Shown here: piece after piece, positions 32,301 through 47,300 of the stretch
Layout of the letters: every line of letters starts with the position of its first letter
How positions within the stretch are numbered: the first letter of the stretch is position 1
From: an uncultured bacterium
GTDB lineage: Bacteria; Planctomycetota; UBA1135; GCA-002686595
DNA: 64,000 nt
NCBI GenBank assembly: GCA_943787795.1
Contig: CALSNU010000005.1
Location: 64,001-128,000 of the forward strand
Direction of reading: 5' to 3'
Position numbers: made by a program

Positions 32301-35300
32301 CCGAGGAACCGCTGGTGGACCCTGCTGGCGGGCCTTGCCGGGCCTCCCTGGGCCTCAAGAAGCTTCACCAATAAGAGAGCCCGGCGACCTAGAAGGTTCG
32401 CCGGGCTCTCCGGTTCGTTCCAGGAGCGGGCCACGTGGGCCCGCAACCGATCACTGGGACTCGAGCGAGTTCGCGACCGACTCGCGGATGTTGGTGATCG
32501 TGGCCTTGACCAGCACCATGAGTGAGCTGCGCTCGTCGTTGAAGCCCTCGCTCTTGAAGAGGAAGCCAAGGACCGGGATCTGCCCAATCCACGGGACTTC
32601 CGCGCGGCGCTCAATGTTGCGGATCCGGGACAGCCCGCCCAGGAGCAGCGAGCCGCCATCCGGGAGGAAGGCGCTCGTGTTCACGCTCTGGACCTCAAGC
32701 TCGGGGAGCTGGAACTCGACCGGGGCGGTGTTGCCACCGAGGGTGGTCGAGAAGTTCCGGAGCGCGACAACCTTGGCCACGGTGGGCTGAATCTCGAGCC
32801 GCAGCCACTGGCGGTTCTCGAGGATGGTGGGTCGCACGTCGAGGACCACGCCCTCGTTGAGGACGTTGACCACCGGGTCGGCGACCGCCTGGAACTGGGC
32901 GACCTCAACGTCGAAGTCCTGGATGTAGGCGCGCTGGTTCAGCACCGCCACGTAGGCGCGCTGGGAGTCCTGGACGCTGAGCATCTGGCTGTTGACGATC
33001 TCGCTCTTCTCGCTCTTCTCCACGGCGCGGAGAATCGAGGAGACCTCCGAGTCGTCGAAGAAGGTCATCTGGAAGCTCAGGCCCCCGATGGTGCTCAGGC
33101 TGCTGCCGAGAGCCGTCTCGAAGAAGTTCTGCGTGGTCGCGCTGAAGGCGCCGTCCAGGCCATCGTCGAAGAAGAGACCCGCGCTGGGCGCGCCGGCCGC
33201 GTTCGTGCCGTCCGTGCCCGTGCCGCCGTTGTCGAGGCCGAGCGATGCCTGGTCCTCGAGGCCGTTCGTGACGTCCTCCAGCACCCGGTCATCCAGGCCG
33301 CGGAAGTCGTTCCCGATCTCCTGAATGAAGTTGTCGGTGACCTCGAGGAACTTGGACTCGATGGTGACGAGCGACGAGTTGAAGCGACGGAGGTCGTTCA
33401 GGAACTCGACGATCTGCATCTGGACCTCAGGGGTCTGGGTGACGAGCAGGTTGGTCTCGCCGACCTCGATGCCAACACCTTCCACTTCCCAGGAGTCCGG
33501 CGCGACGGTGTCCGTGATCAGCGTCTGGAGGTTCTCCAGCTCGATGATCCGCGGTGCCTCGCCGATGGCGCCGAAGGGGCCGCCGCCGTCGTCGTCCTCG
33601 AGCTGGTCGATCAGACGGATCCGGTCGATGCGCGGGCCCTGGAAGTCCGTGAGCGCGAAGATCAGGTCGGACACGTCGTGCACGACCGGCTCCGGTGCAC
33701 CGACGGCCTTCTCGGCGCTGGTGACGAGGACCGCGTCGAACATGATCGTCCAGCGGATCTCTTCGCCTGATGCGGCGACGATCCGGTTGATCGCCTGCTC
33801 GGCGGACAACTCGTTCTGGAAGTTGAAGTTGTAGACGACGCCCTCATCAGAGACGAGGTCCTCGGCGGCCTGGTCGACAATGATGGGGAGGTTTGTGAAG
33901 TCGGCGACGTAGCCCATCACGACCTTCAGGCTCTCCTCGTCCTCGATGCTCGGCAGCGTCACCTTGGTGGTAGCGAGCGCCGTCCGAAGCTCCGCCTCGA
34001 TGGGGGAGATCTTCTTCGAGGGGTTGTAGACGCGCTTGGAGCGGAGGATCGACTTGCGGCGCCACTCGTCGGCGTCGGGAAGCGTGATGATCTCGTTGCG
34101 GGCGATCCGCATCTCCTCGAGCTGCTCGCGGTACTCCTTGAACTGCTCGCTCTTCTTGACGATGTAGTCCGCCTGAACCTGCTGACGGCTGGCCCGGAAG
34201 GCCGCCGTGCGGATCTCTTCGGCCTGGTCGTTCCTCGGCTGCTTGGTGAGCGCGAGGCGAGCGGCCTCTTCAGCGTCCCGGTATCGGCCTTCTTCGAACG
34301 CCGTCGCAGCCTCGGTGACGATGAGGTCGACCTGGGCCTGCTGGCGGTCCGCCTCGGCGGTCTCCTTCTGCTTGAGCATCTCGAAGGCCTCCCTCCGAGT
34401 CATGTCCTTCTCGGACTTCTCAGCAACGCTGCGCTCTTGCTCGGTTTGCGCGAGGAGATCGCGGACCTCGACGTCCGTGCCTTCCCAGTCGATGTCGTAT
34501 CCACCGACCTCGATCTTGGTTCGGGCAAGCCGCAGCTCGGCGATGGCGCCGGCGTAGTCGCCGCGCTGCTTCATCATCTTGGCGTCGCTCAGGTCCTGGC
34601 GGACGGCGACCTTGAGCTGCTCGAGCTTCAGCGAGAACCGGGAGGCTTCCGCGTCGCCGATGGCGTTGACGCCGTCGGGGCGGTCGAGCAACGCGGCCAG
34701 TTCGGCGCGCATTCGCTTCGCCTCAAGGCTCTCGCCGTTGATGGCGAGCGCTCGATCGACCTGGGCCAACGCCTCTTCGAGCATGAGCTGTTGCTTCATC
34801 TCGGAGGCGCGTGCCATGGCGGAGTCGAAGAGCAGCCTGTTCTTCTGCTCGCGCAGGGTCAGGAGCTCAGCGTCGTCCCCGGCCTGATCATCCTGCGCGG
34901 CGGCAGCGCCGCCAGCGCGTTCGATCGTGGAGGGGTCGATAGTGGCGCGGCGACCTTCGCTGGTCGTGCTGACTTCGGCGTCCTGGGGGGCCTCGGAAGA
35001 GGTCGAAGCGCATCCCAGGAGAGCCATAGAGGCGCTGCCGGAGATGAGCAGGAAGGACACGTTGAGGGCGGGGCCGGTGATCCTCATGCGGGGAAGACTC
35101 ACGTCGAATGCAAGGAGGTGGGGGGAGGAAGCGTGGAGGTGTCGAGACCTCTGCAGCTACCGGTAGAAAATCGATTGGCTACCGGGGATTAGCCGGATCG
35201 CAGTCGACGAACTTTGGGGGGGGAGGGACACGCGGACCAGGGCGTTCTCTGTTGGGAGGTCACCGACGGGCCGAGATCGACAGCAGCTGGGGAGCCACCG

Positions 35301-44300: not shown

Positions 44301-47300
44301 AGGTCCTCCTCCGGGATGGGGAGACCGTCGGAGGGGGAGATGTTGATGTCGGGCCCGGGGTAGTCCGGGATCGGCGTCACGAGGTCGGCCACCGAGTAGG
44401 TCGCGCTGACCTGACCGCCGGTCATCTCGCTGTCGGTCACGAACAGCACCACGCCGTCCTCGATCTTCCAGCTCATGCCCTCGGTGAGCAGCGCGATCAT
44501 GTCGAGGATCTGCGTGACGCTCCTGTCAGAGACGTCCAGGTCGACGGCCACCTCGTCCTCTCCGATCTCGTCGTAGACGAGGGAGCTGATCTGGAAGTTG
44601 ACGCCGCTCTGGGCCTGCAGGAAGTTCGCGACGCTCGAGAGCGCAGCGGGGCCGTCCTCATCGCCGAAGCGGGCGGGGACCACCGTTTGGTTCAGGCGCT
44701 CGAGGACCGCGGCGCGCTCGGGGTCGATCGCGGTCTCGATCTGAATGCTCGAGAAGGAGCGGCGCTGGCTCACTTCCTTCCAGCGGTCCAGATCGAAGAT
44801 CAGGGGCTGCGTCTGCGGGACGTCCATGGTCCGCAGGTCGTCGAAGGTGCGGAGCCACTCCTCGCGGTAGTCGCGGCGCTGGCGCTCATCGACCTTGGCG
44901 TGGCCGGCGGCGCGGGAGGTCTCAAGGAGCTCCTGGGCGGCCTCGCTGCCGGGGTCGGCCACGAGGATGAGCTGGGCGAACTTCGAAGCCTCGTCGTAGT
45001 TCTCGGCCATGAAGGCGGAGTTGGCGCGCTCGTAGTAGCTGCTCAGCTTGTTGCGGACGCGGTCGCGCTCGGCGGCCTCCATGCGGGCGACCTCCTCGGC
45101 AGCGGCGGAGCGCTGCTGGGCCAGCTCAAGCTGCTCGGCCTCGTCGCGGGCGATGAGCGCCTCCTTCAGCTTGTTGCTCACCAGGCGCTCGTCGAGCGAG
45201 TTGGTGGCGATCAGCGGATCGATGCGGAGGATCGTCTCGGCCTGACGGAAGCTCTCGATGGCGCGGTCGTAGTCGCCGGCCCTCATGGCAGCCTCGCCCT
45301 TGGCGTCCCACTCTTCAGCGCGAGCGCGCGTCATCGTCTGCTTGACGAGGTAGCGGTCCGCCTCGGAGGCGAAGGCCTCGCCGCCCTGGGCGAGGGGGTC
45401 GCCCATCATCGCCTCGACCTTGCGGAACCCCTCGCGGGCCGACTGGTTCGAGGGGTCCATCTGGACGGCCTCTGAGTAGAGCACCAGGGCTCCCTTCAGG
45501 TCCGAACGGCTGAGGGCCTCCGCGGCGCGCGCAGCGAACTGCTCGGAGAGCACCTTGCTCTTCTGCATTCGCACGAGCGCGGTGTTGAAGCTCTCGTCGG
45601 CACCGTCATCGCCGTCGTCCTCCTGAACGACCACGTTGGTGGCCAGGGCGAAGTCAGCGTCTTCGCTAGCGGCGGCCGCCACGTTTGAGGTGAAAAGGTC
45701 ACTGGACTCCGTTGTCGCGGTCTCCGCGACAGCGTCGGTGGAGACGCTCGGGTCGGTGCCTACGCATGCGACGGATGCCGCGATCAGGAACGGGAGGTAG
45801 GAAAGACTTGTCCGCATGGATCGAGTCAGACGCGTGGGGGTCGTCGGGGGGAGATGACGGTCGTCCGCCCCAGTTCGTCGCCGACGCAGTCGGCGATGGG
45901 GGACAGGAGCGAACGCTGGGGGGGATTCGTGCCCAGGGCAACCAAGAGGGTCGCTTCTGAGCGCGTGGAACGGGACGCGGGGCGGTTCGAAGAACGGGTT
46001 GGTGGGGGGATCTCGCGTCCGTTGCTGAGGCTCCGGGCCGTTGCTGGCCGCGGCGACATTCAGCTTCGAGAGCCACCGCTAGCGCGGCGGAGCCCGATGG
46101 AGCGCCTCTATTGGGCTTCGGAGAGTACGGTTCCTGTGCAGAAGGGTCAACGGGCACCCAGTTCTCAGATAGCTCGCCTCCGATATAGATCGCGTCGCGA
46201 GCGGTTACCGGTGGCGGCGCGGTGTCCTCGCTGAAGATCTCGGGCGGATCCGTCGATGCCCGCAGCGCCTCGTTGTTTGGACGCCGAGGGGCGCTCAGGG
46301 GGTCCGACGGGGAAGCCCAGCCGCGTCCATGGCCAGCTGAATGTCCTCCCACGCCTTGCGCTTCTCGTGGGGGGACCGGAGCAGGTACTCCGGATGGAAG
46401 GTGGGGACGACCTTGCGCCCCATGTGGTCATGCACCTTGCCCCGCAGGCGTCCCAGGGGGGCGTCGACGCCCAGGAGGTGCCCGGCCGCGTGGCGGCCGA
46501 GGGGAATGATCACCAGCGGGTCCACAAGCTCGATCTGGCGCTCCAGCCACGCGGAGCAAAGGGCCTGCTCCTCCGGGAGCGGGTCCCTGCTCTCGGGCGG
46601 TCGGCACTTGACCACGTTCGCGATGTAGACGTCCTCACGGGCGATTCCCATCCCCTTTGAGATGATGTCATTCAGGAGGTCTCCCGCGGCGCCCACGAAG
46701 GGGACGCCCTGCCTGTCCTCGTCCTCGCCAGGGGCCTCGCCGAGGAAGAGGATCCGTCGGGAGCCGGTGCCGTCGCCGAACACGGTCTGCGTGCGCGTGG
46801 ACGCCAGCCCACAGGCCGTGCAGTCCGCAACGCAGGCCTCGAGCTCGCCGAGGTCTCGGGCGCCAGACGCTCGATCCTCCAGGTCTTTCGGGCGAGCGTC
46901 CGCTGCGCTTTCGGCAGTGGAGGGGGCAGCGCCCCGGCCTCCAGCTGCAGCAGGCGCGGCGGCAGGGGCGGCAGCAGGGGCGGCAGCAGGGGCGGCAGCA
47001 GGGGCGGCGGTACGGGCGGCTGCTGGGACGGCTGTTGCGGGCCCTCCGCCAGCGGGAGCGGCATCGGAGGAGCGGGGCCCAGGAGGCGCGGCATGGGCAG
47101 CGGGCAGGTCCTTCGCGGGGCGCGGTGGCGTCGCCGGTAGGGCGTCCAGCCGTGCGATGCGGCGAGTCCCCATGGCCTCGCGGCGGCCGAGGGCGTGCTG
47201 TAGCGCGAGAGCGAGCCCGGCGATATCGCCTTCGGGGCTCCCCGAGGAGCCCTCCTGGGGGTTGTCCTGGCTCATTTCGAGACCTCTGCTGGCCGTTCCG

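Follow-up and report, generated by a model that had tools for sequence, protein, structure and literature searches.

In the genome of a marine planctomycete, the genes for a proton-driven motor and for two scaffold proteins lie between two genes for outer-membrane pores, which raises the question of whether these parts work together and in what process. The window, that is, the whole stretch of DNA that was analysed, comprises 64,000 nucleotides. An earlier note had proposed an order-wide conserved cluster of a kind not described, in which a motor using the proton-motive force (PMF) acts on secretin pores. The seven genes all lie on the minus strand in the order secB, p996, p388, exbB, exbD1, exbD2 and, after a non-coding spacer of 1.3 kb, secA. 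The features are listed below by their position in the window.

46295..47440, minus strand: UDG-family gene, upstream neighbour, not claimed as a part of the machine (Pfam UDG, 123 bits)
43184..45817, minus strand: secB, secretin B, 877 aa, lipoprotein-type, with a TPR/helical N-terminal part (Pfam Secretin, 93.2 bits)
43100..43183, minus strand: pair of hairpins 3' of the secB stop (terminator-like site and folding)
39893..42883, minus strand: p996, secreted TPR-like scaffold of 996 aa, with a signal peptide read from the sequence
38670..39836, minus strand: p388, secreted protein of 388 aa, with a beta domain and a TPR superhelix in the AlphaFold2 model
37674..38381, minus strand: exbB, ExbB/TolQ-type proton channel subunit of 235 aa that has a signal peptide of its own (Pfam MotA_ExbB, 97.9 bits)
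37026..37535, minus strand: exbD1, 169 aa (Pfam ExbD, 68.7 bits)
36425..36964, minus strand: exbD2, 179 aa (Pfam ExbD, 55.2 bits)
36320..36424, minus strand: pair of hairpins 3' of the exbD2 stop (read from the sequence and folding)
35103..36319, minus strand: non-coding spacer with two tandem repeats, without a coding-like ORF or an Rfam match
32451..35102, minus strand: secA, secretin A, ORF of 883 aa, 878 aa from the first ATG (Pfam Secretin, 87.7 bits)
31481..32203, minus strand: HAD-family hydrolase gene, downstream neighbour, not claimed as a part of the machine (Pfam HAD_2, 69.7 bits)

Parts of the cluster

The gene table and the Pfam families bear out the seven genes, strand and coordinates given in the earlier note. 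It was also right that the cluster, by Pfam, contains no secretion-type ATPase, pilin, TonB or TonB-dependent receptor; genes of these kinds are present elsewhere in the host genome, as is a classical Ton locus. Pfam likewise found no platform protein, TolA, TolB or Pal gene within the cluster, and TolB_N gave no match in the host genome, which is 85% complete.

The two pore proteins are paralogous lipoprotein-type secretins with a built-in TPR part, in agreement with the lipoprotein signal and helical N-terminus described before (Pfam Secretin cut-off, 27.5 bits). In both, an N-terminal Cys lies within a lipobox-like stretch, and among 20 secA orthologues this Cys hardly varies. In addition, secB has a Pfam TPR_2 match of 39 bits. 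The AlphaFold2 model of secA consists of a disordered linker, the helical/TPR part (residues 83-331), an N0-like and an N1-like domain, the latter with an insertion, and the secretin barrel, and its best Foldseek matches were BfpB, PilQ, InvG and GspD. All NCBIfam secretin subfamily scores were under their cut-offs for both proteins, and both were far below that of Amuc_1098_fam (92.4 bits for secB, cut-off 750).

The motor consists of an ExbB channel and two unlike ExbD subunits, both of which have the proton-binding trans-membrane Asp, invariant in 30 orthologues as D21 in ExbD1 and D26 in ExbD2. ExbD1 forms a separate clade (SH-aLRT 95), and ExbD2, whose periplasmic part bears a variable insertion, forms its own (SH-aLRT 100). 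The closest NCBIfam models for the motor/TPR block were tolQ (79.3 bits for ExbB, cut-off 221), tolR and tol_pal_ybgF (31.2 bits for p388, cut-off 90.1), with all scores far below the family cut-offs.

Neither p388 nor p996 belongs to a Pfam family, as had been stated: p388 had no match and the TPR matches of p996 were all sub-threshold. The p388 model (pLDDT 92) shows a small five-strand beta domain at residues 40-88 and a TPR superhelix at residues 94-387, whose last repeats are CpoB/YbgF/BamD-like. Profile comparison of p388 with the PDB gave CpoB (6g5s, E 7.9e-14), as well as BamD and YbgF, while Foldseek with the model returned generic TPR proteins only.

Transcription units and conservation

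The gap between secA and exbD2, said to contain no long ORF and a tandem repeat, is indeed of this kind; it measures 1322 bp (35103-36424, hairpin region included) and contains two repeats (15 bp × 4.7 and 19 bp × 3.7). Third-position GC in its ORFs is 0.74-0.80 vs. 0.88-0.94 in the seven genes. Among three congeneric genomes, the spacer ranges from 770 to 1445 bp in length, and alignment is confined to its ends, with about 80% identity. The final ~320 bp, which directly precede secA, show conservation at the genus level and likely represent a secA promoter or leader.

The hairpins after secB (-60.6 kcal/mol, z = -6.9), in the second of which TCTCTTGTAT follows a 17-bp stem, are probably a terminator. 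Those after exbD2 (-69.4 kcal/mol, z = -7.1) were not flagged by the terminator scan because no T-run follows them, and they probably serve as a terminator or stabilise the RNA at this end. For both pairs, none of 200 shuffles was equally stable. Together they suggest three transcription units. Metatranscriptome contigs (four runs, two studies) match a portion of each of the seven genes, with a single one bridging the exbB-exbD1 junction; they are a hint of expression that may also stem from DNA carry-over.

Matches to p996 were found in 118 of 151 genomes of the order. Conservation was followed in 20 loci of the order from seven families, a biased sample since the loci were picked by their p996 match. 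All 20 had a secB orthologue, and secB, ExbB, two ExbD and secA were found in the same order and orientation in 19, the remaining locus breaking off at a contig end. Elsewhere in the phylum, 13 of 20 loci from other orders showed the same arrangement, although the proteins are only 22-40% identical across lineages that keep the gene order. There, the slot after ExbD2 is taken by a Sulfatase-family/TPR gene, and three loci miss ExbBD.

In the loci of both sets, p996, p388, exbB, exbD1 and exbD2 were present or absent together and always between the secretins, and among the loci inspected in Planctomycetota, the block was seen nowhere else. The five-gene motor/TPR block, therefore, behaves as one unit. 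In all six inspected genomes of the order without p996, for which no match was found anywhere in the genome, the block was absent and the secretins were directly adjacent. Since these relatives retain both secretins, the secretins do not strictly need the block. The claim of an order-wide conserved cluster thus stands for 19 of the 20 loci and seven families, but the cluster is neither universal in the order nor restricted to it.

The flanking genes are almost as constant. UDG adjoins secB in 17/20 loci of the order and 9/20 of other orders, and HAD adjoins secA in 19/20 and 15/20, respectively. Inherited synteny, therefore, accounts for part of the conservation, which weakens the argument from gene order.

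Comparison with Akkermansia and other systems

In Akkermansia, MUL2 comprises Amuc_1099-1102 with the adjacent secretin Amuc_1098, and MUL1 comprises mul1A (Amuc_0544), mul1B and ExbB/ExbD-type genes; according to secondary sources, both are required for mucin uptake or accumulation. At the MUL2 locus of an Akkermansia MAG, the NCBIfam models Amuc_1098 through Amuc_1102 all scored above cut-off. The secA profile aligned with an Amuc_1098-family secretin over its full length (hhalign 99.3%, E 2.9e-20, 686 columns), and both planctomycete secretins are full-length homologues of the MUL2 secretin, with the same N-terminal TPR, N0-like domain, peculiar middle domain and barrel. Some planctomycete loci have a PilM-like gene (Amuc_1101_fam 95 and 65 bits, far below the 650-bit cut-off) and two further genes before secB, in the order of MUL2, while a PilM-like gene of this type was not found in the host genome at its 85% completeness.

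The block resembles MUL1 in having one ExbB, two unlike ExbD, a TPR protein of about 1000 aa with YbgF-like repeats and a partner of about 350 aa. In the Akkermansia MAG, the genes are arranged otherwise (ExbB, ExbD, ExbD, 1098-aa TPR protein, Mul1B), but another verrucomicrobial genome shows the planctomycete order (TPR975, 364 aa, ExbB, ExbD, ExbD). Since p388 has no detectable relatedness to Mul1B (hhalign 2.7%), and is not a member of its family, and p996 does not significantly resemble the protein at the Mul1A position (BLASTP E 0.027), the MUL1 likeness rests on ExbB/ExbD and architecture. The MUL1 ExbB has the cluster ExbB as its best match in the host genome (93 bits vs. 54), but the cluster ExbB matches another Akkermansia ExbB slightly better (87 vs. 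80 bits); in sequence, the reciprocity is not clean. In a quick tree, the planctomycete ExbD2 has the second verrucomicrobial ExbD as its sister (SH-aLRT 87). Unlike in Akkermansia, where MUL1 and MUL2 are unlinked and only one secretin of this type was seen, at MUL2, the two sets are physically joined here, and two paralogous secretins bracket the motor block.

A tolQ-tolR-tolR-TPR cassette of the PVC bacteria, published in 2025 as a proposed new PMF-driven system without an assigned function, also has a TPR gene, then a tolQ-like and two unlike tolR-like genes. The planctomycete cluster differs by having the non-coding spacer after ExbD2 instead of a vWA or other membrane-anchored transducer, and secretins have no mention in the text passages on that cassette. 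To call the cluster undescribed was, therefore, too strong in view of the MUL2-type secretins, the MUL1-like block and this cassette, although no paper was found on the joined form.

With Ton and Tol-Pal, the cluster shares the 5:2-type motor family, the ExbD/TolR Asp and a TPR partner recalling CpoB, but not TonB, TolA, TonB-dependent transporters, TolB or Pal; its partners in the outer membrane would be the secretins. In type IV pilus and type II secretion systems, secretins are served by TPR-lipoprotein pilotins (PilQ with PilF/PilW/Tgl). The cluster has the secretin fold and lipidated N-terminal TPR elements in common with these, but its TPR part is fused to the secretin and ATPase, platform and pilins are missing from it. 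The Myxococcus Agl-Glt/Nfs core complex (PMC3169522) is alike in architecture only, as one TolQ-like and two TolR-like subunits (aglR, aglQ, aglS) are encoded with large secreted TPR proteins (GltC, GltD, GltE); it has a TonB-like GltG, which the planctomycete cluster does not, and the outer-membrane parts here are secretins.

Possible roles of the cluster

Our tentative reading, a real possibility although held with less than even confidence, is a PVC-type, MUL-like envelope machine that would use the PMF to import polymers such as large glycans through the outer membrane into the periplasm. The secretins would be the outer-membrane conduits, with the lipidated TPR part in place of a separate pilotin, and ExbB5 with an ExbD1/ExbD2 pair would form the motor. 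The p996 and p388 proteins may span the periplasm from the ExbD domains to the secretin N-terminal domains, a bridge by which motor work could open or drive the pore. The inward direction is borrowed by analogy from Akkermansia, whose homologous or analogous MUL1 and MUL2 are reportedly needed for mucin uptake; uptake rather than export is a guess. Of the earlier proposal, a PMF motor acting on secretin pores, the conserved order, the MUL2-type secretins and the MUL1-like block speak in favour, and the block-less relatives, the UDG/HAD synteny and the three likely transcripts against.

It is unlikely, but deserves weight, that the block serves Tol-like envelope maintenance (outer-membrane tethering or constriction) and is merely seated between independently working secretin genes. 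The Tol-type closest models, the p388 matches to CpoB, BamD and YbgF, the missing TolB_N, the loss of the block from relatives that keep the secretins and the hairpins setting it apart from both are all consistent with this. However, the Tol-type scores are far below their cut-offs, the cluster has no TolA, TolB or Pal, and loss in six relatives would be unexpected for a housekeeping system; the location, seen only between the secretins in Planctomycetota, and the Akkermansia counterpart, reported as a mucin transport locus, also argue against it.

An outward function, with ATPase-free export of a pilus-like fibre, holdfast/exopolysaccharide or proteins through the secretins being driven or gated by the motor together with the TPR scaffolds, is considered improbable. 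The solved secretin relatives (BfpB, PilQ, InvG, GspD, pIV) all act in export or fibre extrusion, related loci have PilM-like genes, and MUL2 proteins have been described as pilus-like and serving attachment. Against this, pilin, platform protein and ATPase are missing from the cluster, the MUL2-type PilM-like gene was not found in the host, and the phenotype reported for Akkermansia is the loss of mucin accumulation inside the cell.

Equally doubtful is the absence of any joint function, with UDG, secB, block, secA and HAD being an ancient syntenic neighbourhood preserved by descent: UDG and HAD, which are unrelated, persist in most loci, an Akkermansia MAG has UDG ~3 kb away from its MUL1-type ExbB and three transcription units are likely, but across orders gene order has outlasted divergence to 22-40% identity, the block disappears as a whole, and the unlinked Akkermansia counterparts reportedly share one phenotype.

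Under the import reading, the planctomycete cluster would be a linked version of the two mucin-uptake gene sets of Akkermansia, which makes it a good candidate for the import of large polymers by such bacteria.

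Layout and parts of the seven-gene cluster

All seven genes are encoded on the minus strand, within 32451-45817 of the window, and the coordinates and the Pfam scan agreed with the gene families assigned in an earlier note.

Genes of the cluster and its spacer, in order of transcription (window positions)
43184-45817, minus strand: secretin B (secB), Pfam Secretin; first in transcription order
39893-42883, minus strand: p996, a secreted TPR-type protein of 996 aa; TPR matches in Pfam, sub-threshold only
38670-39836, minus strand: p388, a secreted TPR-type protein of 388 aa; no Pfam family
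37674-38381, minus strand: ExbB, Pfam MotA_ExbB
37026-37535, minus strand: ExbD1, Pfam ExbD
36425-36964, minus strand: ExbD2, Pfam ExbD
between exbD2 and secA: spacer of 1322 bp, non-coding
32451-35102, minus strand: secretin A (secA), Pfam Secretin; last in transcription order

According to Pfam, the cluster is flanked upstream by a UDG-family gene at 46295-47440, 480 bp from secB, with a radical-SAM gene further upstream, and downstream by a HAD-family hydrolase gene at 31481-32203. The UDG ORF contains a 12-bp tandem repeat of 7.2 copies (46947-47032), which encodes an Ala/Pro-rich run in a long N-terminal extension. No small ORF of note was found between exbB and p388. Signal peptides of the ordinary type are present on p388 and p996, and ExbB also carries a signal peptide. 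The Pfam scan found no TonB, TonB-dependent transporter, TolA, TolB or Pal encoded in the cluster, and no ATPase, platform protein or (pseudo)pilins, the parts that mark a type II secretion or type IV pilus system.

Both secretins scored over the gathering score of Pfam family PF00263 (27.5 bits), with 87.7 bits for secA and 93.2 bits for secB, and the cluster secretin profile matches pIV, PilQ, GspD and RcpA. For the NCBIfam secretin subfamilies, every score was below its cut-off. A lipobox-like context surrounds a Cys in both proteins, and this Cys is nearly invariant in 20 secA orthologues. The AlphaFold2 model of secA, of moderate confidence (pLDDT 67.6), comprises, besides a disordered linker, helices at residues 83-331, domains of N0-like and N1-like type, the latter with an insertion, and the barrel; N0/N1-type beta-alpha domains occupy 380-476 and 471-575, before the barrel. 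Foldseek ranked BfpB, PilQ, InvG and GspD highest, with 400-660 columns aligned and low TM-scores because the monomer model is loose. Each of the genome's four other secretins has a higher Pfam score, and three are found close to T2SSE ATPases, which sets the two cluster secretins apart.

The trans-membrane Asp of ExbD1 (D21) and of ExbD2 (D26) is invariant in 30 orthologues each, and the two proteins form separate clades in a quick, provisional tree (SH-aLRT 95 and 100). The AlphaFold2 model of p388 (pLDDT 92) shows a small five-strand domain followed by a TPR superhelix; its profile matches CpoB, BamD and YbgF, and Foldseek returned generic TPR proteins only.

The spacer between exbD2 and secA had been described as a gap without a long ORF but with a tandem repeat. 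Third-position GC and a repeat search bore this out: there is no ORF with coding-like third-position GC, and there are two short tandem repeats. No Rfam family matched anywhere in 30000-48000, spacer included, and no remnant was found in the spacer of a Sulfatase-family gene or a third ExbD, which occupy this slot in relatives. Among three genomes of the same genus, the spacer measures 770-1445 bp, and alignment is confined to its first ~100 bp and its last ~320 bp, which precede secA. It is read as a terminator, then variable filler, then the secA promoter or leader. Folding predicts two very stable hairpins after the exbD2 stop (-69.4 kcal/mol, z -7.1) and two further ones after the secB stop (-60.6 kcal/mol, z -6.9). 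Therefore, the cluster probably forms three transcription units: secB alone, the five-gene block from p996 to exbD2, and secA.

The window stretch recurs almost unchanged in metagenome runs of marine samples and seawater that stem from several studies. Short metatranscriptome contigs (four runs, two studies) include parts of every one of the seven genes and of the spacer, and one crosses the exbB-exbD1 junction; strand, level and ends are not readable from such RNA-library contigs, DNA carry-over is possible, and uncovered parts prove nothing.

Spread, loss and variation among relatives

Matches to p996 were found in 118 of the 151 genomes of the order UBA1135. Twenty loci of the order, from seven families, were picked by a p996 match and are thus biased to carriers; in 19 of them secB, ExbB, two ExbD and secA keep the same order and orientation, and the remaining one stops at a contig end. 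Where tblastn found no p388 (six loci), its slot holds an ORF of 359-400 aa. The order-wide gene order claimed previously is therefore confirmed, and it reaches further: among 20 loci from other orders, the motor block lies between two secretins in 13, two secretins occur without ExbBD in 3, a single secretin in 3, and one locus breaks off at a contig end. Loci with a PilM-like gene and two more genes before secB occur in family f2 of the order and in other orders. In the phylum, the middle region of secA matched 351 of 401 sampled genomes at E ≤ 1e-5, mostly twice per genome. This count overstates the spread, since the weak matches in all five genomes checked were partial matches inside a different ORF (346-1712 aa).

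In other orders, a gene of ~600 aa usually lies between ExbD2 and secA. The five of these tested (in fetched loci L052, 6805-8682; L053, 10567-12510; L057, 11588-13501; L068, 6662-8623; and L055, 11008-13473) all matched Pfam Sulfatase, and two of them also TPR. True sulfatases carry C/S-x-P-x-R at the active site. Here the position reads TLPSH or TLPAH where readable (L055 and five relatives outside the Pfam-tested set), a motif that points to what is probably a Thr-nucleophile enzyme of the alkaline phosphatase superfamily rather than a true sulfatase.

A third ExbD gene was seen in five loci (L038, 7515-8045; L041, ~11433-11888; L051, ~6751-7200; L063, ~8607-9104; L064, ~13113-13529). Four of the five pair with the ExbD2 of their own genome in the quick tree, so that they look like recent, independent duplications; the L038 copy is unresolved inside the ExbD2 clade. 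L064 also has a DDE transposase gene (10989-12590) inside the cluster, between the Sulfatase-family gene and the third ExbD.

Six genomes of the order without a p996 match, split evenly between the window's own family and f2, have secB and secA directly adjacent in every case, with UDG still upstream. Thus, the five genes were gained or lost together at a single site, and the secretin pair remains in their absence. In one block-less relative (L105, 4504-7063), the secA match is split into two pieces that lie in different frames, for which a frameshift, gene decay or an assembly error could account.

Comparison with Ton, Tol and mucin utilisation systems

With the Ton system the cluster shares ExbB and an ExbD with its trans-membrane Asp, but not the TonB and TonB-dependent transporter partners: the two TonB_C and two transporter genes of the genome are at other loci. 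In a classical Ton locus (contig C2, 203621-209766), a receptor is accompanied by ExbB, ExbD and TonB and by an ExbB-type domain inside a 669-aa open frame, and a second TonB lies beside a receptor on contig C1 (556253-559474); these are the only TonB-dependent receptors found in the genome. On contig C7 (44835-46762), a MotA/ExbB-family gene is followed by two OmpA-like genes and may represent a stator-like system with two MotB-like partners.

The nearest NCBIfam models are tolQ for ExbB (79.3 bits, cut-off 221) and tolR for ExbD1 (45.6 bits, cut-off 127.3), and p388 scored 31.2 bits against tol_pal_ybgF (CpoB; cut-off 90.1), so the TolQ, TolR and CpoB equivalog cut-offs are not reached. These nearest families would suit a Tol-like envelope system that merely neighbours the secretins; TolA, TolB and Pal do not lie alongside, TolB_N was not found in the genome (85% complete), and we regard this explanation as unlikely.

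Closer counterparts are the mucin utilisation loci MUL1 and MUL2 of Akkermansia muciniphila. Published accounts state that MUL genes specify pili together with a periplasmic complex required for mucin to accumulate (PMC12418764); they name Amuc_0544 as mul1A, a gene of mucin transport (bioRxiv 2025.02.20.639370), list Amuc_0546 under biopolymer transporters (PMC11480725), and define MUL2 by Amuc_1098-1102 (bioRxiv 2025.12.30.696933; PMC13174399).

One locus of an Akkermansia MAG scored over the NCBIfam cut-offs for Amuc_1102, 1101, 1100, 1099 and 1098, which identifies it by sequence as MUL2 with its secretin. The cut-off of the Amuc_1098 family (NF042912, 750 bits) is passed by the MAG protein (1117) and not by secB (92.4) or secA (49.2). 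The secA profile nevertheless aligns with the Amuc_1098-type secretin colinearly over its full length, TPR part included (hhalign 99.3%, 686 columns, 85-872 to 73-879). In contrast to MUL2, where Amuc_1101 (PilM-like), Amuc_1100, Amuc_1099 and Amuc_1102 stand beside the secretin, the window lacks these genes, and tblastn did not find them in the genome (85% complete); its sole PilM-like match (E 0.001) lies beside an ordinary pilus secretin on contig C4.

A second locus of the MAG, with ExbB, ExbD, ExbD, a 1098-aa TPR protein with YbgF-like repeats and a Mul1B-family protein (284 bits), is recognised by its gene families as MUL1. The cluster matches this architecture of ExbB, two unlike ExbD, a ~1000-aa TPR protein and a ~350-aa partner. 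Another verrucomicrobial genome has the planctomycete order: a 975-aa TPR protein, a 364-aa protein, ExbB, ExbD, ExbD, and then a membrane-anchored 349-aa protein. The best match of MUL1 ExbB in the window's genome is the cluster ExbB (93 vs 54 bits); in the reverse search, the cluster ExbB slightly prefers another Akkermansia ExbB over that of MUL1. The quick tree makes the second verrucomicrobial ExbD the sister of ExbD2 (SH-aLRT 87) and leaves the place of the first unresolved. For the TPR proteins, which diverge fast, p996 gave non-significant BLASTP matches to Mul1A-position proteins (E 0.027 and 0.048), and p388 had no match to the Mul1B family NF052542 at E ≤ 0.01 (hhalign 2.7%). A UDG-family gene (L090, 13054-14067) also lies at a distance of ~3 kb from the ExbB of MUL1 type in an Akkermansia MAG.

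The PVC TPR-tolQ-tolR-tolR-vWA cassette has a membrane-anchored vWA transducer after the second tolR, whereas this slot is non-coding in the window. In two verrucomicrobial loci (L097, 5131-6180; L096, 10317-11864), the protein after the second ExbD (349 and 515 aa) has one N-terminal membrane helix; the 349-aa protein had no NCBIfam match. Both may be of the transducer type treated in a 2025 paper on periplasmic force transducers (PMC12204202), in whose accessible text the word secretin is absent.

The earlier note had called the cluster a kind not described. This stands for the linkage of secretins and motor, no description of which was found in the accessible parts of the literature searched, but not for the system, since a MUL-type PVC system is already known. 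The cluster is best filed as a physically linked version of that system, not as a categorically new machine.

Proposed mechanism and its implications

The reading we tentatively put first, which is possible but falls short of an even chance, is a proton-powered, MUL-like uptake machine in which motor, TPR proteins and secretins act in series and inward. The two secretins would be outer-membrane conduits, with a lipidated TPR part in place of a pilotin; ExbB with the ExbD1/ExbD2 pair would convert proton flow into movement, and the soluble TPR proteins would pass it on to the secretins' periplasmic domains. The inward direction is taken from the Akkermansia reports. That an ExbB5-ExbD1/ExbD2 motor drives the secretin pores directly via soluble TPR scaffolds, without a TonB-like transducer, seems doubtful. 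A Ton/Tol-like motor acting on secretins, as first proposed, is made plausible by conservation and MUL likeness, but it is unproven. Three points count against the coupling: the block is lost in six relatives, the unrelated flanks are conserved to the same degree, and three transcription units are likely.

The same parts might instead export a substrate or assemble a fibre; resemblance to PilQ and GspD would fit, the Akkermansia reports point the other way, and we consider this improbable. Inherited synteny with no joint function has a similarly low standing: in most loci, within the order and outside it (L031-L070), UDG and HAD stand on either side of the secretin pair, whether through ancient synteny or a functional tie, while the motor keeps its place between two secretins across orders.

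If the coupling fails, the cluster is still a widespread PVC-type secretin pair with a removable, TonB-less motor module. Returning to the uptake machine, the Akkermansia genetics, in the portions accessible, named two unlinked loci and gave no mechanism. In the planctomycete cluster, counterparts of the two loci are neighbours, a second secretin is added and a TonB-like coupler is missing; this linked layout yields a concrete wiring hypothesis, from motor to TPR scaffolds to secretins, on how PVC bacteria may bring large polymers into their enlarged periplasm. If it is true, secretins would join TonB-dependent transporters as gates driven by the proton-motive force, and the machine would be common to many marine planktonic Planctomycetota. 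The more doubtful direct drive with no TonB-like transducer would, if real, give outer membranes a third way of being energised, beside those transporters and the type IX GldLM system; it would also be the route, long sought, for the intake of whole polysaccharides by Planctomycetota and Verrucomicrobiota, and their crater-like surface structures might have their molecular basis in it.
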